DNA of 64,000 bases from Bacteriovoracia bacterium (GCA_050251055.1 JBFWNL010000002.1:384001-448000), one strand, 5' to 3'. Counted from the first letter of the stretch, positions 10,487 through 64,000 are shown. Translations and numbers: made by a program. Notes: a model not told the origin generated them from the sequence alone.

Positions 10487-10502
10487 GTATTCCGGCGTAT
10501 TC
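10487..10502 (-). promoter_or_regulatory. Direct-repeat operator candidate GAATAC-GCCG-GAATAC
   Basis: Intergenic, about 96 nt upstream of ATG 10390; one of four co-oriented copies in the locus. Confidence 0.65.
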
Positions 10503-13443: not shown

Positions 13444-13459
13444 GTATTCCTACGTATTC
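13444..13459 (-). promoter_or_regulatory. Direct-repeat operator candidate GAATAC-GTAG-GAATAC
   Basis: Intergenic, upstream of the 11637..13325 pilin gene. Confidence 0.65.
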
Positions 13460-13794: not shown

Positions 13795-14169
13795 TCACCA
13801 CCAGTGACAGTGGTAGGTATGCGCGGGCTGGACCTCGCACCCATATGCGCGCGCCATACAAAACGTGTGTCGAAGTATCAAACGCAGGTTGATACAGGCG
13901 TTGGGATTGACTTGGTACTCCGTCAAGTCGAGGCAATTATTGAACTCGCAAAACCCAGCTTGCGCTTCCAATGCGGCCTCGATGGCCTCACAGTTTGTTG
14001 TCCAATCCGGCGTGAAGTCCCGACATAGTCCATCCTCCTGATCTGCGAAAGGATCCATGAACTGTTCGGGCTCGGGGGGGCCTACAAAACCGGGATCTGG
14101 ATCTCCCGCCGCCGAGTGGGCCACCAAAAAAACGATTAGCGCCAAGAACAATGCACGAACTCGGTTCAT
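13795..14169 (-). CDS. Small secreted Cys-rich protein
   Basis: GGAGGAGG RBS; signal peptide (AHSAA); 8 Cys in the mature part. Confidence 0.7.
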   Translation of the reverse strand: MNRVRALFLALIVFLVAHSAAGDPDPGFVGPPEPEQFMDPFADQEDGLCRDFTPDWTTNCEAIEAALEAQAGFCEFNNCLDLTEYQVNPNACINLRLILRHTFCMARAYGCEVQPAHTYHCHWW

Positions 14170-14257: not shown

Positions 14258-14273
14258 GTATTCGGCGGTATTC
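14258..14273 (-). promoter_or_regulatory. Direct-repeat operator candidate GAATAC-CGCC-GAATAC
   Basis: In the divergent spacer 14170-14416, about 88 nt upstream of ATG 14169; extra half-sites form an 11-bp inverted pair at 14289-14299 and 14357-14367. Confidence 0.65.
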
Positions 14274-14416
14274 CAAACGACGACGAGCGCCTGTATTCCG
14301 AAACCCGACGGAAAACCCCCCCTCAATACAACGACTTGGCAGGGGAAATCCCCGCTGGAATACAGGCCAAATTCGACACATTCCGCACACCCCTTTGTTT
14401 CTGGTAACTTAGGCAT

Positions 14417-15301
14417 ATGACCACTCGTAGTACGTTAGAGCGGCCATGCATCTTTGAATACAACGACTACCGCCGCTACTTGAAGGACTTCTACGCCCAT
14501 AAAAAGAGCCAGAAAGGCGCGGGGTTTTCCTTTCGCTCGCTCGCGAAAGCCGCGGGCTATAGCTCGCCGAACTTCTTCAAGCTCGTGATGGACGGACAGC
14601 GTAATATGTCCGACGAGAGCATCACCCGCATCGCGCTGGTGCTCAAACTCAGCAAGCAAGAAGCCGTATTTTTCTTTAGCCTAGTTCACATGAACCAGGC
14701 GCAGACGAGCGAGGAGCGCGAGCGTTTCGCGGCGGAACTGATGAACAGTGCCGGATTCCGCAAGATCCACCCGCTCAAGGAGGCCCAATATAACTTTTAC
14801 GCGAAGTGGTACATCGCCCCGATCCGTGAGCTCATCGCCACGGCTGACTTCCAAGAAGACCCGGAATGGATCGCGAAGCAGATGACCCCGCCGATCACCG
14901 CGCGGGAGGCGAAAGTCGCGCTCGACGAGCTCCAAACCCTGGGTATGGTCCGCCGTGACGAGTCCGGCCGGTTGCTCCAGGTGAACAACCTCGTGAACAC
15001 GTCGGACGAAGTGATGTCGACTTCCTTGAGCCGCTACCACAAACAAATGATCCGCCTAGCCGGCGAATCGATCGACCGTTTTTCCCGCTACGAGCGGGAG
15101 ATTTCCAGCGCGACTCTGTCCGTTTCCGAGGATTGCGCTAAGAAGGTGAAACAGCTCATCCAAGAGTTTCGCGAACAGATCTTGCAGCTCGCCGCCGAGG
15201 ACACCTCGACTTGCGAGCGGGTGTACCAAGTCAACTTCCAGTTGTTTCCCATGTCCGGGAAACCAGGGGGAACCGGGGGGACGAGCAATGGAGCCGTTTG
15301 A
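14417..15301 (+). CDS. TIGR02147/DUF4423-family protein with N-terminal HTH
   Basis: IFEYNDYRRYLKDFY...FSFRSLAKAAGYSSPNFFKLVMDGQRN; WYIAPIREL; C-terminal VYQVNFQLFP. Confidence 0.88.
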   Translation: MTTRSTLERPCIFEYNDYRRYLKDFYAHKKSQKGAGFSFRSLAKAAGYSSPNFFKLVMDGQRNMSDESITRIALVLKLSKQEAVFFFSLVHMNQAQTSEERERFAAELMNSAGFRKIHPLKEAQYNFYAKWYIAPIRELIATADFQEDPEWIAKQMTPPITAREAKVALDELQTLGMVRRDESGRLLQVNNLVNTSDEVMSTSLSRYHKQMIRLAGESIDRFSRYEREISSATLSVSEDCAKKVKQLIQEFREQILQLAAEDTSTCERVYQVNFQLFPMSGKPGGTGGTSNGAV

Positions 15302-15866: not shown

Positions 15867-15882
15867 GGATACGCCGGAATAC
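15867..15882 (+). promoter_or_regulatory. Direct-repeat operator candidate GGATAC-GCCG-GAATAC
   Basis: Intergenic, 84 nt upstream of ATG 15967; near-identical to the 10487 site in sense orientation. Confidence 0.65.
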
Positions 15883-57055: not shown

Positions 57056-58243
57056 ATGCGCGCTTTCGTAGCTGCCATCTGCCTCGGCACCGCGGCGTTT
57101 GTAGGGAGTGGCTCCACGTATGCCGAAGTTCCACCGGCGGTCATGAAGGACTGCTTGGAAGGTAAGTTGCCGAGCTGCCTTGGCATCCTGAAAAAACGCT
57201 GGGTCGAGCTCCAGCAATGGCAATTCGAGCAGGTGGCCAGTAAAGCTTGCGACCTAGGGCACACGAGCTCATGCGGCGAGCTGTTAAAAAACATGGAAGT
57301 TCGTTACCGACGCTTCTGGAAAGCGAAGCAGGGAAACCCCGTCGAACGACCAGCGATCGACTTGGTAAAGTACCTGCGCGTGCTCAATCAATTCCAAGGC
57401 TACTCCGAAATTCCTTCCGAAGCCCATCCGCCGGAATCGGTGCGTGACCTGGTGGACCGCGCCTACGCCCAACTCGACCCGGCCGTCCATCTCTTGCTCG
57501 GCGACGCGCTCGTGGGAATTTACTTGATGGAGAACCTGGGCAGCTCGGCCATCGCGGTGGACGTGTGGGATGACCGCCAGAAAGTAGTGGGCGGCGTGAT
57601 CGCGTTGGACATCGGCTGGCTAAACCGCGCGGCGAACGAGTGGGCGACCACGAAAGAAAACACAGCTTTCCAAAAGGAAAAAAGCTACCAACTGAAAGTG
57701 AAGCTGGCCGAAGCCGGAAAGAACACGCGCGAGGCGGCCCTTCAGTATATCTTGTTGCATGAGATCGGCCATATCATCGAACAAACGCGGCGCTTAAATC
57801 CGCCCGGCGACCGTGCGCCCCGCTGGGTGAAAACGCATCGGTATCCTTACTTCAAGCTCAGTTGGATGGGCGGGCACGAAAAATACGTGAGCCGTTTCGA
57901 CCGAAACTTTCCGGAACGCGCGCGTCTGAGCTTCTACTCGCCCAAAGCGAACCCACCCGCGGCCAAACCCACGCTCGCCGAGGCAACGGCAATCTACCGC
58001 AAGCTCGAGCAGACGAGCTTCCCCACGCTCTACGCCGCTACCCATCCCCAGGATGATTTCGCGGAGGCGTTTGCCAACTACGTGCACGTCGTGTTGATGA
58101 AGCGACCTTACCAAGTCACGCTGACCAAGGACGGTAAAATCACGCGCGAGCTCAAGGACTGCTGGAATGCACGCCGATGCCGGGAGAAGCGGAAGTTCCT
58201 CGAAAAACTGTTCCAGGTCTTACAAGCACCCACCAAAAAATAA
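57056..58243 (+). CDS. Secreted zinc metallopeptidase-like protein
   Basis: Signal peptide; HEIGH; TLYAA...DDFAE third-ligand motif. Confidence 0.7.
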   Translation: MRAFVAAICLGTAAFVGSGSTYAEVPPAVMKDCLEGKLPSCLGILKKRWVELQQWQFEQVASKACDLGHTSSCGELLKNMEVRYRRFWKAKQGNPVERPAIDLVKYLRVLNQFQGYSEIPSEAHPPESVRDLVDRAYAQLDPAVHLLLGDALVGIYLMENLGSSAIAVDVWDDRQKVVGGVIALDIGWLNRAANEWATTKENTAFQKEKSYQLKVKLAEAGKNTREAALQYILLHEIGHIIEQTRRLNPPGDRAPRWVKTHRYPYFKLSWMGGHEKYVSRFDRNFPERARLSFYSPKANPPAAKPTLAEATAIYRKLEQTSFPTLYAATHPQDDFAEAFANYVHVVLMKRPYQVTLTKDGKITRELKDCWNARRCREKRKFLEKLFQVLQAPTKK

Positions 58244-58247
58244 TGGG

Positions 58248-58264
58248 GAAAACGGCGGGAAAAC
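58248..58264 (+). promoter_or_regulatory. Direct-repeat operator candidate GAAAAC-GGCGG-GAAAAC
   Basis: Intergenic, upstream of the propeller gene; one of four 11-bp-period copies in the locus. Confidence 0.5.
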
Positions 58265-58470
58265 GCTTCTATTTACGCATTGCTTCCAGTTCTGGAGTTT
58301 TTCTCGCACCTAGATGAGTATGGACTCATTGAGAGTGCAGCGCTCCCACGAATGGGGCGGAGCGCTCCGAGTGGTCACGGGCATCCCCGTCAGCTCCTTA
58401 GACTCAGTACCCAAATACGGACCCGTGGCCACTCGCCATTTCTTTCCCGAGAAATGGCGCAAAAGATGGG

Positions 58471-59631
58471 GTGAATAGTTACAAGAAAGCTGGAAGAATA
58501 GGCCAAGTGAATCCGCGTTCCCCATCTCGCACTCGTTGGGTTAGCCTGACTCTGATCGTGACCGTAGGCGTTCTGGTCACCGCCCTGGGATGTGGTGCGC
58601 AGTTCTTGCGTTCGGTTCGGGCGCATTCGTTGGGATTCGTCACCTTGATCAATGCAGTGGGATCGTTTCGAATCGACGGAACGACGGGTTTGATTTCGGA
58701 ATATTCAGAAACCGCCACCACCGGCAGCTTCCACGACCTAGCCATCCGCTCGGACGGATCCAAGTTCTTTGGCAGCGGACCCTCCTCCTCCGCCCGTGCC
58801 TACCAGATCACCCCGCGCCCCGTGTCCCTGAGCGCACTGACTTCACCGGCCGTGGCCTTCATGCTAAGCGCCCTACGCTGGACCCGCTCCGACCGGTTTC
58901 TGATCGCCGGTACCTCCGACGGAAAAGTTGAAACTTACGGAACTTCGGCCACCAGCGAGCTTGCCCTCATTCAAACGCAAAGCGCTGGAGGATCCGGTAG
59001 CCTCGTACTAAAGATCGCGACTCACCCGGAAGGAAGAGTAGTCGCCGTGGTTAGCTCGAGCTCTCCCCGCCTGACGACCTACCTGCTGAGCGACGAAGGG
59101 CTGCTCACGCCCGCATTCCAATATGCCAACGTCGGCGGATCCCAAGCTATTGAGCTGCATCCCTCGGGAAGTTTTCTCTACACCGGCCTCGTCTTATCGA
59201 GCTACCGCGTGGACGGGCAAAGCGGAGAGGTGGTGAAAATCCAGACCGTCTCCCCGGCGTTCGTCACGAGCTACTCCGCGCTTACACCCGAAGGAAGCTG
59301 GCTGTTCGTGGCGAACTATTCGGGCTCCACCCACTTCAGCACGATCAAAAGTTTCTCCGTGGACGCCAACAGCGGGCTCCTCACGGAATCCGCCAGCTTC
59401 TCCTTGGAGGAATACGAGCAAATTCTATCCTTGGCTCCGCATCCGGACGGTGGATTCTTGTACGGGCTCACCGATCAGAAGAAAATCCATGTATTCGCGA
59501 TCAACGCCACGGACGGGAGTCTCCGACAGGTCGGCGTACAGGCGACCACGGGGAACGTATCAAACTTCGACGCGCGCTCGCGCCTTTTCACGATCCGCTT
59601 CCAGGAAAGCATCACCTCGCTCCAATACTGA
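58471..59631 (+). CDS. Beta-propeller lipoprotein (lactonase-like), paralog of 10501..11610
   Basis: Lipobox TALG-C; HPEGRVV, HPSGSFLY, TPEGSWLF and HPDGGFLY blades. Confidence 0.78.
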   Translation: MNSYKKAGRIGQVNPRSPSRTRWVSLTLIVTVGVLVTALGCGAQFLRSVRAHSLGFVTLINAVGSFRIDGTTGLISEYSETATTGSFHDLAIRSDGSKFFGSGPSSSARAYQITPRPVSLSALTSPAVAFMLSALRWTRSDRFLIAGTSDGKVETYGTSATSELALIQTQSAGGSGSLVLKIATHPEGRVVAVVSSSSPRLTTYLLSDEGLLTPAFQYANVGGSQAIELHPSGSFLYTGLVLSSYRVDGQSGEVVKIQTVSPAFVTSYSALTPEGSWLFVANYSGSTHFSTIKSFSVDANSGLLTESASFSLEEYEQILSLAPHPDGGFLYGLTDQKKIHVFAINATDGSLRQVGVQATTGNVSNFDARSRLFTIRFQESITSLQY

Positions 59632-59674
59632 AAGTCCGGAATGCGTCTTTTTTGACCCCCCACTAGGCAATTCA

Positions 59675-59691
59675 GTAAACACACAGAAAAC
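59675..59691 (+). promoter_or_regulatory. Direct-repeat operator candidate GTAAAC-ACACA-GAAAAC
   Basis: 91 nt upstream of ATG 59783. Confidence 0.55.
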
Positions 59692-59782
59692 ACTACTTCG
59701 CAAAAAATCCACCAAAACATCGGCATTTTCTGCGGTTTTACTCATGATTGAAACAGGGGAACAAATCGTAAGGGGGCTCAGG

Positions 59783-62116
59783 ATGAAACGTGACCAAGGC
59801 GGTTTCAGCTTACTGGAAGTGATGGTGGGCATGGGGGTAGCCACGGCGCTCTCCCTCGGGGTAGCCGGAGTCATCTCCTCTACGGCCAAACAAACCAAGA
59901 TCGTCGACAACCGCTCACGCGCCGCCCTCGCTTCGAACTCAATCCAGCAGATGCTCGGCAACGCTTCGGTCTGCGCCCATGCCTTCCGCCGGGTCGACCA
60001 TGCCTCCTCCGAGCCCGCCCGCGTGAACCTCACCGACCAGCCCCTGCCCTACACGGAGAGCGCGGAAGGCGCGCACGCCAAGGTCGAGGGCGCCGTTGGC
60101 GTACCGCAAGGGAACTTGGCGTTTCAAGCCATTTACCTAGGCCCCTCGCGCGTGGCATCGTTTGGGGCGCTCCTACCGGATACCTCCACTTTAAAAGTCG
60201 AAGAACTCCAATTCGTGCGTCTCGATTCTCCCAGCCCAACCCCTGGGGGAGGAGCGTTCATCACGCCGTTTGAACTGCGGCTGACCGTCTCCTCCCCCAG
60301 CCCCCAAGGGGCCACCAAATATAAATATTTTTTGAACGTCGAAACCCTTAGAGCCGATGGCCTGGAGCCGATCCGAGGATGTTCGATCCAAAACGGAATC
60401 GCGGGTAGCGGTAGCGGCACGCCCGGACGCTTGGCCAAGTGGGCCAACGCCACGACTCTCACCGATAGCGTCGTCCACGAACGTAACGGTAACATCGGGA
60501 TCGGAACCACCAATCCCGACACGGCGCTCACGATTGGCAGCTACCGAAGCACCGATCGTCTGCGCGTCAACACCAGCGACCTAGGTTTGTTGGTCGAAGT
60601 GAAGAATCCCAGTTCTCCCACCGAAGCGGATGTTGCGCAGCTCTTCGCCGGTATCCTGGAAAAAAACACTCTGGTCACCGGCGACCGCGCGCAGCTGCGG
60701 TTGGGCTTCAAGGCCAATAACGATGGAACGCCGGGAGATCTCCGAACCTTCGCGGCCGTGGAAGGCGTGGCGGAAAACGCCCAAGGCGCCACCCGCCGAA
60801 CGGGCCTGCGGTTACTCACCTCCGACACCGGTCACTCGCAGGCGCAGGAGCGCCTTCGCATCAGCGGCGCGGGGAAGGTGGGTATCGGCACGGCGGCGCC
60901 GCAGGAAGCCTTACAGATCGGACCCGAATGGACGTTTCGCGACGGCTACGGCGCGGGCAAATGGATCGTCTTCAACGGATTCTGGGAAGGCAGCAAATGG
61001 CAGTATCTAACTACGAATCCGATGTCGTTCCTGCACTTCGGTTACGACGGAAAAATCTCGTTCGGAGCGAACCCGACCGCGCCGGCGGGTAGCCAGACGA
61101 CCACTCCCCCAAAACACCTCACGATCGCCAACGACGGCAATATCGGCATCGGCACGGACAACCCCGCGGACCGCCTGGTGGTGCGAGGGCCGGCGCCTTC
61201 GCTGCGCGTGATCGATTCGGGCGCGGCGGCGGATTATGCGCAAGTGGGCGCAATTAGCGGCGCGGTAAGCGTACTTTACGGCGCCAACGCCGCGGCCTCC
61301 GGCGGGTACGGATACGTAGGCACCCAGACGAATCACCCGCTACGTTTTTACACCAATGCCGGGGCGGCCGGAGCGCCCGCCCTGACTATCACCAACAACG
61401 GCCTGATCGGCGTCGGCTCGTCGACACCGACCGAGAAGCTCGAAATCCTCGCGGGCGACCTCGCCATGAGCAACAACACCTCCATTCGTATGCGCGATAA
61501 CACGGGAACCAAGCGGGCCGCCTTGAGCTACACCTACGCCAACAACCTGCAGCTATTCAATCGGGCGGCGACCGGCGACGTGCAAATCGGCAACACGAAC
61601 AACCCCTCCGGCGAAGTGCACTTTTACACTGCGTCGACGAATGGCTCCGGGATCGAGGTACGTCGGGCCACCATCGGTGCCCAGGGCCTCACTCTCGTCA
61701 ACAACGGCAAAATTTACGTGGACAACATCCAGATTTGCTCCATCGCCGGTTGCACATCGAGTTCGGACCGCCGCCTGAAGGAAAACATCACCTCGTTAGA
61801 CGCCGACGAGTCGCTGGCGAAAATCCTCGGCCTGCAAGGGGTGACATACGACTGGAAAGATCGGGCTCGCTTCGGGGCCTCCCGTCAAATCGGCCTCATC
61901 GCCCAGGAAGTAGAGCGCATCTATCCCGAGGCCGTGGTGACGAATGAAAAAACGGGGTTGAAATCCATCGCCTACGATCACCTCGTGGCGCCCTTGATCG
62001 AGGCGGTCAAGGCCCTTTACGAGAAACTGGGCGGACGCTTGGAAAAGCTGGAGCGCGAGAACGCCGAGCTCAAAGCGCGGCTGGCACGAGTCGAAGCCGC
62101 GCTGGCGAAACGATAA
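59783..62116 (+). CDS. Prepilin-headed fibre protein with C-terminal S74 intramolecular chaperone
   Basis: G|FSLLEVMVGMGV; GNIGIGTTNP-type shaft repeats (4); S|DRRLKENI...IGLIAQEVE S74 domain; terminal coiled coil. Confidence 0.88.
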   Translation: MKRDQGGFSLLEVMVGMGVATALSLGVAGVISSTAKQTKIVDNRSRAALASNSIQQMLGNASVCAHAFRRVDHASSEPARVNLTDQPLPYTESAEGAHAKVEGAVGVPQGNLAFQAIYLGPSRVASFGALLPDTSTLKVEELQFVRLDSPSPTPGGGAFITPFELRLTVSSPSPQGATKYKYFLNVETLRADGLEPIRGCSIQNGIAGSGSGTPGRLAKWANATTLTDSVVHERNGNIGIGTTNPDTALTIGSYRSTDRLRVNTSDLGLLVEVKNPSSPTEADVAQLFAGILEKNTLVTGDRAQLRLGFKANNDGTPGDLRTFAAVEGVAENAQGATRRTGLRLLTSDTGHSQAQERLRISGAGKVGIGTAAPQEALQIGPEWTFRDGYGAGKWIVFNGFWEGSKWQYLTTNPMSFLHFGYDGKISFGANPTAPAGSQTTTPPKHLTIANDGNIGIGTDNPADRLVVRGPAPSLRVIDSGAAADYAQVGAISGAVSVLYGANAAASGGYGYVGTQTNHPLRFYTNAGAAGAPALTITNNGLIGVGSSTPTEKLEILAGDLAMSNNTSIRMRDNTGTKRAALSYTYANNLQLFNRAATGDVQIGNTNNPSGEVHFYTASTNGSGIEVRRATIGAQGLTLVNNGKIYVDNIQICSIAGCTSSSDRRLKENITSLDADESLAKILGLQGVTYDWKDRARFGASRQIGLIAQEVERIYPEAVVTNEKTGLKSIAYDHLVAPLIEAVKALYEKLGGRLEKLERENAELKARLARVEAALAKR

Positions 62117-62152
62117 GCCGCGCGGGGCCCAGCTCCCAGCTGGCCTAAAGCC

Positions 62153-62169
62153 GTTTACTAGGTGTTTTC
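62153..62169 (-). promoter_or_regulatory. Direct-repeat operator candidate GAAAAC-ACCTA-GTAAAC, reversed relative to the regulator gene
   Basis: Intergenic, 59 nt upstream of 62229. Confidence 0.55.
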
Positions 62170-62228
62170 TGCATCCATAAAACCGTGTCCTGGATGACGC
62201 ATTTTAGCCGGAAAAGAGGGCAGATATA

Positions 62229-63128
62229 ATGTCTCTAAGGGGCCAATTCTTGAAAAAAAATTCCGTCCAGGAAAAATCCGCCCGCGGGCCGGTGATCTAC
62301 CAGTATCAAGACTACCGGGCTTTTCTCCGCGATTACTACCGGCACATGAAGCTGCTGCGGCCGGAGTTCTCCTTCCGCTTCCTCGCCAAACGAGGCGGCT
62401 TCAAGTCCTCCGCGATGTACAAGCTCGTAATGGAAGGGAAACGCAACCTCTCGCCGCGGGGGGCGACGAAGATCGCGCGGGCACTGAACCTCGGGCGACG
62501 CGAGTCGGATTTTTTCAAAAACCTCGTGAACTTCAACCAGTCCAAAACACCGCTACAACGGGAGCACTTCGCGGGCGAGCTCCTCGAAAGCGAAAAATAC
62601 AAGCAAACGCATCCGCTGAACGAAGCGCATTTCAACTATTTCTCGCGCTGGTTCTCGATCCCAATCCGGGAGATGGTCGGCGCCCAGGGTTTCCGCGACG
62701 ATCCGAACTTCATCGCCAAGCAGCTGATTCCCGCCATCGCCACCCATGACGCCAAGAAAGCCTTGAGCGAGCTGCAGGCGCTGGGGATCTTGGCGCGCAA
62801 TCCCGACACCGGCCGGCTCAAGCACAACACGTATTCGATCCTGACCCAAGACGAGGTGACTTCTTCCTACGCCGCGCAATTTCACCGCGAAATGATCCGG
62901 CTTGCGGGCGAAGCGATCGATCGCATCCCCAAGCCAGATCGTGACATTTCCGCCGCCACCTTCCTGCTGTCGGAAGAGGCCGCCCGCCAGTTCAAAGAAA
63001 CGATCCGCGCCATGCGCGACAAGCTCATGGACATCGTCGCCCACGACGACCGCAAGTCGCCGCGGGTCTATCAGGTGAATTTTCAGTTTTTTCCGCTCAG
63101 CCATGTCTTTCCGGAGGGCGAAGAATGA
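62229..63128 (+). CDS. TIGR02147/DUF4423-family protein with N-terminal HTH
   Basis: IYQYQDYRAFLRDYY...FSFRFLAKRGGFKSS; WFSIPIREM; VYQVNFQFFP; clear paralog of 14417..15301. Confidence 0.88.
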   Translation: MSLRGQFLKKNSVQEKSARGPVIYQYQDYRAFLRDYYRHMKLLRPEFSFRFLAKRGGFKSSAMYKLVMEGKRNLSPRGATKIARALNLGRRESDFFKNLVNFNQSKTPLQREHFAGELLESEKYKQTHPLNEAHFNYFSRWFSIPIREMVGAQGFRDDPNFIAKQLIPAIATHDAKKALSELQALGILARNPDTGRLKHNTYSILTQDEVTSSYAAQFHREMIRLAGEAIDRIPKPDRDISAATFLLSEEAARQFKETIRAMRDKLMDIVAHDDRKSPRVYQVNFQFFPLSHVFPEGEE

Positions 63129-63673
63129 TGGTTGCTTTCGGGGTTTTTTCGAAGTGGCGCGGGGTCGGGCCGGCGATGCTCGTCCTCATCGGGCTCCTGT
63201 CCGGTTGCGCGGGCACCGACACCGTTCATACCGGAACGATCATCGGCAACCCCGTTGATCCGGACACCATTCCGCCATTGATTCACTCCGAAGTCTTGCG
63301 GCAAACCATCTGTGACCGCGTCATCGAATGCGGCGTTCCTAATATAGAAATGGAAGGATGCCTGCGGGGAGTGAATGGAACCCGCAAAACCGTGCCGCGC
63401 CTTGGCCTGTCTTCCGTCTTGTACTATGATTTCGGAGCCGTGGTGAAAAGCGAACGCCAGGGGTTTTTACGCGCCAACGAGGCCGCCGCCATTCACTGCC
63501 GAAAGGCGGTGGAACACACGAGCTGCGCGGAGATCCACAACCTAAAGATCCAGCATTTCGGGTATGAACCCCTCAATACGCTGCTCGAGGAAACCGACGG
63601 ATACTGCTTGAACTTCTTCAACTACCTGGGAGCGACGAATCCGTTCGGTGGCGCGACAGGGAACGGCCACTGA
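63125..63673 (+). CDS. Cys-rich lipoprotein with GTIIGNP motif
   Basis: Lipobox LLSG-C; ATGA overlap with the regulator stop; Cys spacing resembles 15288..15854. Confidence 0.75.
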   Translation: MMVAFGVFSKWRGVGPAMLVLIGLLSGCAGTDTVHTGTIIGNPVDPDTIPPLIHSEVLRQTICDRVIECGVPNIEMEGCLRGVNGTRKTVPRLGLSSVLYYDFGAVVKSERQGFLRANEAAAIHCRKAVEHTSCAEIHNLKIQHFGYEPLNTLLEETDGYCLNFFNYLGATNPFGGATGNGH

Positions 63674-63691
63674 GATGGCCACAGAAGATCA

Positions 63692-63708
63692 GTAAACAGT
63701 TTGCAAAC
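63692..63708 (+). promoter_or_regulatory. Direct-repeat operator candidate GTAAAC-AGTTT-GCAAAC
   Basis: 83 nt upstream of ATG 63792. Confidence 0.55.
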
Positions 63709-63791
63709 AAAAACCACGAATCCAAGCTCTCCCCGCTCGATCTTCGTCCGCCGTATACGCTATTTTTAGGAACACCTAGAAGGAGTTCCCA

Positions 63792-64000
63792 ATGAAGAAA
63801 ACAATCGCTGGCATCCTCATGTTTTTAGCCTTAACCGGATCGACCATTTCCCTGAATGCTCCGTCGGCCCGTGCCGATGGCGGCGGGCTAGGTTGCGTCT
63901 ACTATCCAGCGGAAATTTTACCGCTTATCGAACAACTGGAAGAAGCTCACTTCATTTGTCTAATTGACTGCCGCAACGTTGCCGGGAACAACTACACGCT
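63792..64000 (+). CDS. Secreted Cys-containing protein (partial, runs off the window)
   Basis: AGGAG RBS at 63781; MKKTIAGILMFLAL...ARA-D signal peptide; open to the window end. Confidence 0.7.
   Translation, partial: MKKTIAGILMFLALTGSTISLNAPSARADGGGLGCVYYPAEILPLIEQLEEAHFICLIDCRNVAGNNYT

Follow-up and report, generated by a model that had tools for sequence, protein, structure and literature searches.

OmpR/PhoB-type response regulators bind tandem direct-repeat boxes that lie one helical turn apart, upstream of the promoter and oriented to it. Repressors of the Lambda, 434 and P22 type read inverted repeats as symmetric dimers, with the start of helix 3 as specificity determinant, and so do HigA antitoxins, DdrO and the controller (C) proteins of restriction-modification systems. 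For SinR of Bacillus subtilis, which carries an XRE-type helix-turn-helix (HTH), the published study describes a 7-bp word, GTTCTYT, that occurs inverted, in tandem or as a single copy; the affinity of the purified protein was about 10-fold lower for tandem than for inverted pairs, and interdomain flexibility was invoked for tandem binding (PMC3163267). Here we report on four tandem hexamer pairs between positions 58,248 and 63,708 of a stretch of 64,000 nucleotides from a Bacteriovoracia bacterium (GCA_050251055.1, JBFWNL010000002.1:384001-448000; “the window”). They lie around a gene of the TIGR02147 (“Fsuc_second”)/DUF4423 family, in a region which we call locus 2. A second TIGR02147 locus in the same window is called locus 1.

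TIGR02147/DUF4423 is a large, uncharacterised family present in Bdellovibrio-like predators, myxobacteria and Fibrobacter. A full-text search on both names returned no publication on its function or DNA binding; the sole mention it gave is a DUF4423 protein listed as upregulated. By its scores the locus 2 regulator fully qualifies for the family (TIGR02147: 237.6 bits, cut-off 50; PF14394, i.e. DUF4423: 114.8 bits, cut-off 30). It is one of a large paralog set: out of 36 TIGR02147 matches in the genome, 33 are full-length and pass the cut-off.

We consider it likely that the four elements, with the pattern GHAAAC-N5-GHAAAC (H being A, T or C), are the cognate operators of this adjacent protein. 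We infer binding from the non-randomness and placement of the sites, from the covariation of word and recognition helix, and from the fold and the predicted dimer of the regulator. As in OmpR/PhoB boxes, two identical half-sites are arranged head to tail one helical turn apart. The regulator differs from these proteins by having no receiver or Trans_reg_C domain, neither of which was detected in it or in the 22 proteins scanned in the window and just beyond, and DNA reading is here assigned to an XRE-like HTH. The modelled fold of its residues 19-103 may be similar to that of the Lambda, 434 and P22 repressors, HigA, DdrO and the C proteins of restriction-modification systems, though the fold matches are middling. 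With such XRE-fold dimers the regulator would share the start of helix 3 as specificity determinant, and many TIGR02147 family members share with them predicted autoregulatory sites near their own promoter; what sets the regulator apart is a predicted winged-helix-like domain together with a large C-terminal part for dimerisation.

SinR resembles the modelled regulator or its family in two respects: it combines an N-terminal lambda-repressor-like HTH with a separate oligomerisation part, and it uses one half-site in inverted and tandem arrangements, as is seen for GTATTC across the TIGR02147 family. It differs in being a tetramer with an antagonist, SinI, and it has no sequence relationship to the regulator. 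A further difference is that tandem pairs are the dominant form at the target genes described here. Three features are new, namely the arrangement as direct repeats, the combination of the half-site GTTT[A/T/G]C with a helix of its own kind, SSAMYK, and the split in which spacing goes with clade and hexamer with helix.

Tandem hexamer pairs at locus 2

A preliminary description of this DNA had placed the motif four times in locus 2, with one copy 91 nt before ATG 59783 and another 83 nt before ATG 63792; all four positions and both distances are correct (Table 1). The pattern occurs exactly four times in the window compared to 0.07 expected, and four matches were reached in none of 100 shuffles. 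In the whole genome (3,765,037 bases) there are 13 matches, seven of them non-coding according to our own simple gene caller (3429 genes, 90.6% coding). Locus 2 holds four of these seven, one in each of its four intergenic regions. In the promoter-proximal non-coding DNA of these linked genes the motif recurs beyond chance.

As the pattern had been fitted to the four sites, the choice of the word was left free in a test corrected for post hoc selection, which allowed any hexamer with one free position, a period of 9-12 and either strand. A tandem hexamer common to all four intergenic regions of locus 2, or even to three of them, appeared in none of 5000 composition-preserving shuffles of these regions. 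Hence we give hardly any credence to the explanation that the sites arose by chance or from the base composition of A-rich intergenic DNA and were chosen post hoc with a degenerate pattern. This explanation can draw on the fitting itself and on the abundance of related words, since single GHAAAC words occur 131 times in the window (107 expected) and versions of the pair with one mismatch 39-46 times in the non-coding DNA of the genome. It is opposed not only by the shuffles but also by an unbiased scan of the genome for at least three tandem-hexamer sites within 8 kb, in which loci 1 and 2 were the cleanest of 15 word clusters at about nine places, and by the motif being kept before paralogous genes at unlinked places. 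By blastn (word 9, E ≤ 1) the four intergenic regions had no other similarity to one another or to any further part of the genome; the sites are therefore not fragments of a larger repeat.

The unlinked places come from the nine other genome matches, most of which are inside coding regions. Two are intergenic and have the geometry of target sites, one before a pilin-like gene (P0112) and one before a gene for a Cys-rich secreted protein (P0113). P0113 and P0114, the latter encoded 3' of site 4, are each other's only matches in the proteome (pairwise E 5e-7, 24% identity), and alignments of the upstream regions of these paralogous targets have only the motif and the ribosome-binding site (RBS) in common. 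Since neutral DNA would be randomised at the divergence of P0113 and P0114, the retention of the motif works as a footprint through paralogs. The small secreted protein of locus 1 (13795-14169) was also considered as a homolog of P0113 and P0114 and was rejected, as it matches neither.

The target genes are functionally related, and their sites are all oriented alike, at a distance of 75-91 nt from the start codon. This geometry could also be expected if the doubled hexamer were part of a promoter, e.g. a -35 or UP-like element of an alternative sigma factor serving a surface-protein regulon. We regard such a role as very unlikely for several reasons. Site 3 has the opposite orientation, and no shared promoter element follows the sites at a constant offset on their 3' side, as judged by eye from the aligned downstream sequences (promoter positions were assigned by eye as well). 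A scan for sigma-70 promoters and terminators gave nothing at the sites; its two promoter-like matches, neither of them relevant, compare to 1.6 expected. In addition, the word shifts with the regulator helix between paralog loci; if one sigma factor served all of them, this shift would be left without explanation.

Table 1. Sites, genes and paralog words. Positions without prefix are counted in the window; positions elsewhere in the genome carry a prefix.
Feature	Position	Strand	Sequence or motif	Remarks
Locus 2 site 1	58248-58264	+	GAAAACGGCGGGAAAAC = GAAAAC-GGCGG-GAAAAC	5 nt past the stop of 57056-58243; 206-293 nt 5' of the beta-propeller gene
Locus 2 site 2	59675-59691	+	GTAAACACACAGAAAAC = GTAAAC-ACACA-GAAAAC	points at ATG 59783, 91 nt away
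Locus 2 site 3	62153-62169	-	GAAAACACCTAGTAAAC; + strand: GTTTAC-TAGGT-GTTTTC	59 nt 5' of ATG 62229, 80 nt 5' of TTG 62250
Locus 2 site 4	63692-63708	+	GTAAACAGTTTGCAAAC = GTAAAC-AGTTT-GCAAAC	points at ATG 63792, 83 nt away
Exact motif copy	C1:773776-773792			77 nt 5' of P0112, 372-aa pilin-like gene (C1:773870)
Exact motif copy	C1:162640-162656			75 nt 5' of P0113, 116-aa Cys-rich secreted protein (C1:162214)
Zn-peptidase-like protein	57056-58243			weak match
Strongly folding stretch	58300-58470	+		not part of the operator; minimum free energy -72.9 kcal/mol, z -4.73, 0/200 shuffles as good
Exported beta-propeller protein (Lactonase/WD40-like)	58471-59631	+		start uncertain, GTG 58471 or 58558; candidate target of site 1
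777-aa pilin-like protein	59783-62116	+	prepilin-type N-terminal methylation motif	C-terminal Peptidase_S74 chaperone domain; candidate target of site 2
TIGR02147/DUF4423 regulator of locus 2	62250-63128	+	helix 3 starts KSSAMYK	residues 52-58 of the 292-aa form
182-aa lipoprotein	63125-63673	+	lipobox LLSGC (by eye)	translationally coupled, 4-nt overlap with the regulator
P0114, 100-aa Cys-rich secreted protein	63792-64094	+		extends past the window end (64000); candidate target of site 4
Locus 1 sites, exact	10487-10502, 13444-13459, 14258-14273			each 84-156 nt from the gene start it points at
Locus 1 site, 1 mismatch	15867-15882			as above
TIGR02147 regulator of locus 1	14417-15301	+	helix YSSPNFFK
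Paralog word, locus 1			GTATTC-N4-GTATTC	helix SPNFFK
Paralog word, C5a			GTATTC-N5-GTATAC	helix SPNFFK
Paralog word, C5b			GTATTC-N5-GTATTC	helix SPNYFK
Paralog word, C8			GTATTC-N5-GAATAC	helix SPNFLK
Paralog word, C2c			GTGTGC-N4-GTGTGC	helix SSNFFK
Paralog word, C2d			GTCCAC-N4-GTCCAC	helix SPSTIQ
Paralog word, C14			GCTTTC-N4-GCTT[TC]C, twice	helix STSHLY
Paralog word, C1			GTGTAC-N4-GTGTAC	helix SASFIK
Paralog word, locus 2			GTTTAC-N5-GTTTTC	helix SSAMYK

Recognition helix, word and spacing across the family

The twelve best-scoring TIGR02147 paralogs of the genome are referred to as group A and the lower-scoring ones as group B. The upstream regions of group A contain hexamer pairs, mostly in tandem and with a period of 10-11, and all of them have the form GTnnnC except for GCTT[TC]C before C14 (Table 1); no clear site was found upstream of C12. 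The four SPN[FY][FL]K paralogs with paired sites (locus 1, C5a, C5b and C8) all carry GTATTC pairs. Counted over the non-coding DNA of the genome there are 83 distinct GTNNNC tandem pairs with at most one mismatch between the halves, and 17 of them are no more than 5 kb away from one of the 12 group-A genes, i.e. in 3.5% of the genome. If loci 1 and 2 are left out, 9 out of 75 pairs are near group-A genes compared to about 2 expected (hand count). The assumption that every paralog has at least three tandem sites within 8 kb found no support; among the paralog loci the unbiased scan gave such clusters only at loci 1 and 2, and between one and three sites were counted for each of the remaining group-A paralogs with sites. 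The pair of C5a overlaps a TATACT only 8 nt 5' of the start codon, an arrangement which looks like autorepression.

The comparison of the two loci in the window had been drawn in the preliminary description already, and much of it stands. The locus 1 motif GAATAC-N4-GAATAC is real, with four matches in the window and 0.12 expected, and so is the difference between a period of 11 at locus 2 and of 10 at locus 1. The helix strings given there, YSSPNFFK and FKSSAMYK, are correct and are positioned at the start of helix 3 in the predicted HTH. The proposal of paralog-specific operators holds insofar as the difference in hexamer goes with a difference in recognition helix, but not in the strict sense of one operator per paralog, as at least four paralogs use GTATTC and differ in spacing or arrangement. 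The copy before the locus 2 regulator, described as reversed, is indeed opposite to the target sites, but it has the same orientation as the sites before the regulators C5a, C5b, C2c and C2d. A site of the locus 2 type with one mismatch (GAAACCCGACGGAAAAC, 14300-14316, + strand) lies 100 nt 5' of the ATG of the locus 1 regulator and points at it. This could reflect cross-regulation between the two regulons, or chance given the 39-46 one-mismatch sites of the genome.

Further evidence for a link between helix and word comes from 80 foreign TIGR02147 loci, which were retrieved with a 21-row alignment from records of Bdellovibrionota, Myxococcota, Fibrobacterota and Nitrospirota. In the 380 nt upstream of 42 loci with the helix SPN[FY][FLI]K, GAATAC/GTATTC is the top de novo 6-mer, with 63 occurrences compared to 4.8 expected, and is present in 30 of the 42. 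Two or more exact copies were found upstream of 24 out of 51 [SA]PN[FY][FLI]K loci and of none out of 29 loci with other helices; for at least one exact copy the numbers are 35 out of 51 and 5 out of 29. Paired sites (N4 or N5, at most one mismatch) make up 43 rows in 434,820 nt, some of them counted twice because GTATAC is its own complement, and 40 rows belong to SPN-like loci. No formal P value is attached to these cross-genome counts since related loci are not independent; the SPN-GTATTC link recurs in several phyla.

Foreign SSNFLK loci contain GTGTTC-N5-GAACAC and GTGTTC-N5-GTACAC, and STN[YF]LK loci GTATAC and GTGTAC/GTACAC as well as, in one case (STNYLK), GTTTAC-N5-GTAAAC. The helix SPSFIK goes with GTATCC-N5-GGATAC and NPSYLK with four GTATCC/GGATAC words. 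With these 80 loci the covariation of HTH residues with local motifs across genomes, which the preliminary description had suggested to look for, is borne out at the level of the family. We also considered the SHAHLK class of Fibrobacter as a replicate of the locus 2 half-site and rejected it, as it consists of eight near-orthologous loci with a GTTAC...GTAAAC-like site that is not directly comparable. An orthologous locus was not found in 40 genomes of the same order, where the best outside match has 44% identity.

The origin of the locus 2 specificity can be approached by a maximum-likelihood tree of 17 paralogs, comprising the 12 of group A and five of group B as outgroup, out of the 33 in the genome. 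C5a comes out as the closest relative of the locus 2 regulator (sister group, 99/99), followed by C5b (94/94). These three paralogs have N5 spacing, and the locus 1 regulator groups with the N4 users C2c and C2d (81/87). On the evidence of these sequences spacing (N4 or N5) follows clade and hexamer follows helix. As the locus 2 regulator is nested with GTATTC/N5 paralogs, its specificity derives from a GTATTC/N5 ancestor and not from locus 1. The earlier view of the locus 2 motif as a re-tuned version of the locus 1 motif has to be given up accordingly: identity is 65% to C5a and only 44% to the locus 1 regulator, which is part of the N4 clade. Helix residues 54-57 would have changed from PNFF to SAMY after the split from a GTATTC/period-11 paralog. 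The branch of the locus 2 regulator has a length of 0.42 compared to 0.15 for C5a.

Within about 12 kb of the locus 2 regulator there is no response regulator or other DNA-binding gene, so that the TIGR02147 gene is the only DNA-binding candidate nearby, and a site is present in all four intergenic regions around this one regulator. The hexamer fits the GTnnnC frame of the family, the half-site tracks helix 3 here and abroad, and no other paralog has a helix similar to SSAMYK. These observations make it unlikely that the sites, while being real cis-regulatory elements, are bound by another protein, i.e. by another of the 32 TIGR02147 paralogs or by an OmpR/PhoB-type response regulator. Such a protein might nevertheless be considered, because winged-helix response regulators classically bind tandem direct repeats of 10-11 bp, because a symmetric dimer fits inverted repeats better, and because unlinked copies of the motif exist and linkage to the regulator is hence not absolute.

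Predicted fold and proposed mode of binding

The structural arguments for the adjacent regulator as the binding protein start from an AlphaFold2 model with a predicted local distance difference test (pLDDT) score of 88.5 (68-row alignment). According to VIA-align, residues 19-103 resemble an XRE-fold HTH, with 3pxp (Z 8.4, root mean square deviation (rmsd) 3.4, 82 aligned), HigA (Z 7.9-7.4), DdrO 6jq1 (Z 7.5, rmsd 2.6, 73 aligned) and P22 c2 2r1j (Z 6.7, rmsd 2.7, 66 aligned) as well as 2eby and 3trb among the fold matches. Residues 122-199 resemble winged helices of the ArsR, MarR and HxlR type (Z 8.1-6.3). We base the fold statements on VIA-align because Foldseek matches of the whole model (E ≥ 0.07) and the sequence search of solved structures, which gave no relative (best E 1.9), were weak. 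Neither HTH_3 (PF01381) nor HTH_31 of Pfam matches the regulator, on which DUF4423 alone was found at E ≤ 0.01; the distant relative P0106 carries PF01381 (HTH_3) and PF13560.

Among the group-A paralogs helix positions 54-58 are variable, in a surrounding where S41, R43, S53, G63 and R65 are invariant in all 12 sequences and G50 and N66 in 11 out of 12. The “recognition” helix of the winged-helix part has no comparable variable block. The regulator was further predicted to form a homodimer with an interface score (ipSAE) of 0.84 compared to 0.00 for the best control, a mark reached by 20 out of 30 proteins solved as one-chain pairs and by 1 out of 23 solved as single chains. At least 97% of the contacts are common to the runs, with a partner pLDDT of at least 82. 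Residues 135-160 and 209-290 form the predicted interface, which is without HTH residues.

These features suggest a homodimer that would be joined by the C-terminal DUF4423 part and leave each subunit with a free N-terminal XRE-like HTH. Helix 3 (KSSAMYK) would read one hexamer, GTTT[A/T/G]C, or G[A/T/C]AAAC on the other strand, and the two HTH domains of one dimer could dock head to tail on the two hexamers. Because the sites point at genes from 75-91 nt before the start codon, we take the target-gene sites to act from upstream of the promoter, most likely as activator sites. Site 3 with its opposite orientation before the regulator is a candidate autoregulatory site, and the coupled lipoprotein is an obvious candidate partner for the input signal. 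The proposed regulon would contain the 777-aa pilin-like protein, P0114, the operon of regulator and lipoprotein, and the two unlinked genes of the same two types. The beta-propeller protein, or the structured RNA before it, probably belongs to it as well.

While we favor this reading, one must keep in mind a number of points that weigh against it. With regard to the sites, the distance of site 1 to the next gene is large (206-293 nt), and no gene lies in the direction in which site 3 points. The tandem arrangement is a weak point, since one would expect inverted repeats to be preferred by a symmetric dimer, and inverted GTATTC..GAATAC pairs are in fact commoner than tandem ones in the foreign loci (24 rows compared to 16, with three in the reverse inversion). 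For SinR, a second word in tandem brought no gain in binding over a single site (PMC3163267). With regard to the protein, fold matches at Z 6-8 are middling by VIA-align's own scale, and the second, winged-helix domain of the model could contribute to DNA binding. The helix-word link is incomplete, as two SPN-type paralogs (C2e and C2f) are without a clear site and 16 out of 51 SPN-type foreign loci are without an exact GTATTC upstream. Finally, none of the 111 relatives retrieved shares the helix SSAMYK, and its pairing with GTTTWC therefore has no independent replicate outside this genome. In a search of 5.8 billion proteins the best match outside this genome reached 49% identity, and no homolog above 53% identity was found.

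Genes of the locus, further observations and implications

The longest open reading frame of the regulator begins at ATG 62229, which overlaps a TATAAT at 62225-62230. Its start is probably TTG 62250, which is located behind the RBS AAGGGG and fits the 292-aa database copy. Weak paralogs of the 182-aa lipoprotein come after other TIGR02147 regulators of the genome, and a gene on the same strand follows within 150 nt in 24 of the 33 paralogs. Judged by eye, many genes 3' of paralogs encode a signal peptide or lipobox at the beginning, after which comes a G-N-P motif; only some of these genes are detectably related (16 BLASTP matches at E ≤ 1e-3, both directions counted). The strongly folding stretch at 58300-58470 has no copy elsewhere in the genome, and a search of Rfam over 57900-64000 gave no match at E ≤ 1. 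Site 1 points at this 170-nt stretch and, beyond it, at the beta-propeller gene. The stretch is a candidate for a structured leader, or for a small RNA that would be driven from site 1.

We further report observations from other parts of the genome. A near copy of the locus 2 motif, GAAAACGCCTAGAACAC at C1:607933, lies 60 nt 5' of a weakly VWA-like gene in reversed orientation, as before the regulator. GTATTC-N5-GTATTC with a similar spacer T..CC is found at four unlinked places (C2:9457, C3:155049, C6:112962 and C3:85032). The identical 16-mer GTGTGCTGGCGTGTGC occurs at C2:178815, in the own promoter of regulator C2c, and at C4:261316, and a dispersed copy of another paralog's word at C5:191277. 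In view of these dispersed copies several paralogs seem to have regulons beyond their own locus. Four tandem TTATCC/GGATAA sites with a period of 10-11 at C4:313145-316221, 13-14 kb from the nearest TIGR02147 gene, are probably the operator set of some other regulator. In the genome, whose G+C content (GC) is 58%, AT-rich islands (GC below 25% over at least 150 nt) number only 40. Fourteen of them are positioned directly 5' of 14 group-B paralogs, and the start of one more group-B paralog is overlapped by a fifteenth island. The islands contain repeated words of their own, e.g. GAATGC four times or GTAAGC twice; examples are C6:210751-211082, C1:211056-211461 and C4:164621-165039.

A more far-reaching interpretation, which we offer tentatively and with more doubt than confidence, is that TIGR02147/DUF4423 proteins might be near-orthogonal local regulators with a readable code. 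The half-sites would be GTnnnC with the inner bases set by residues 54-57, the spacing would be set by clade, and the arrangement would decide between activation and autorepression. Locus 2 would then represent a re-tuning event caught in the act (four adjacent residues of helix 3, PNFF to SAMY), by which a bacterium of a predatory lineage would have gained a new private regulon for pilin-like and secreted proteins.

For the family the present analysis provides a concrete DNA-binding hypothesis, with defined half-sites, helix residues and a natural specificity switch between paralogs that are 65% identical, together with candidate target genes, namely those for pilin-like surface proteins, small Cys-rich secreted proteins and lipoproteins. 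If the code were true, the regulons of hundreds of uncultured predators would become predictable from sequence, and the family could be a possible source of orthogonal regulator-operator pairs.

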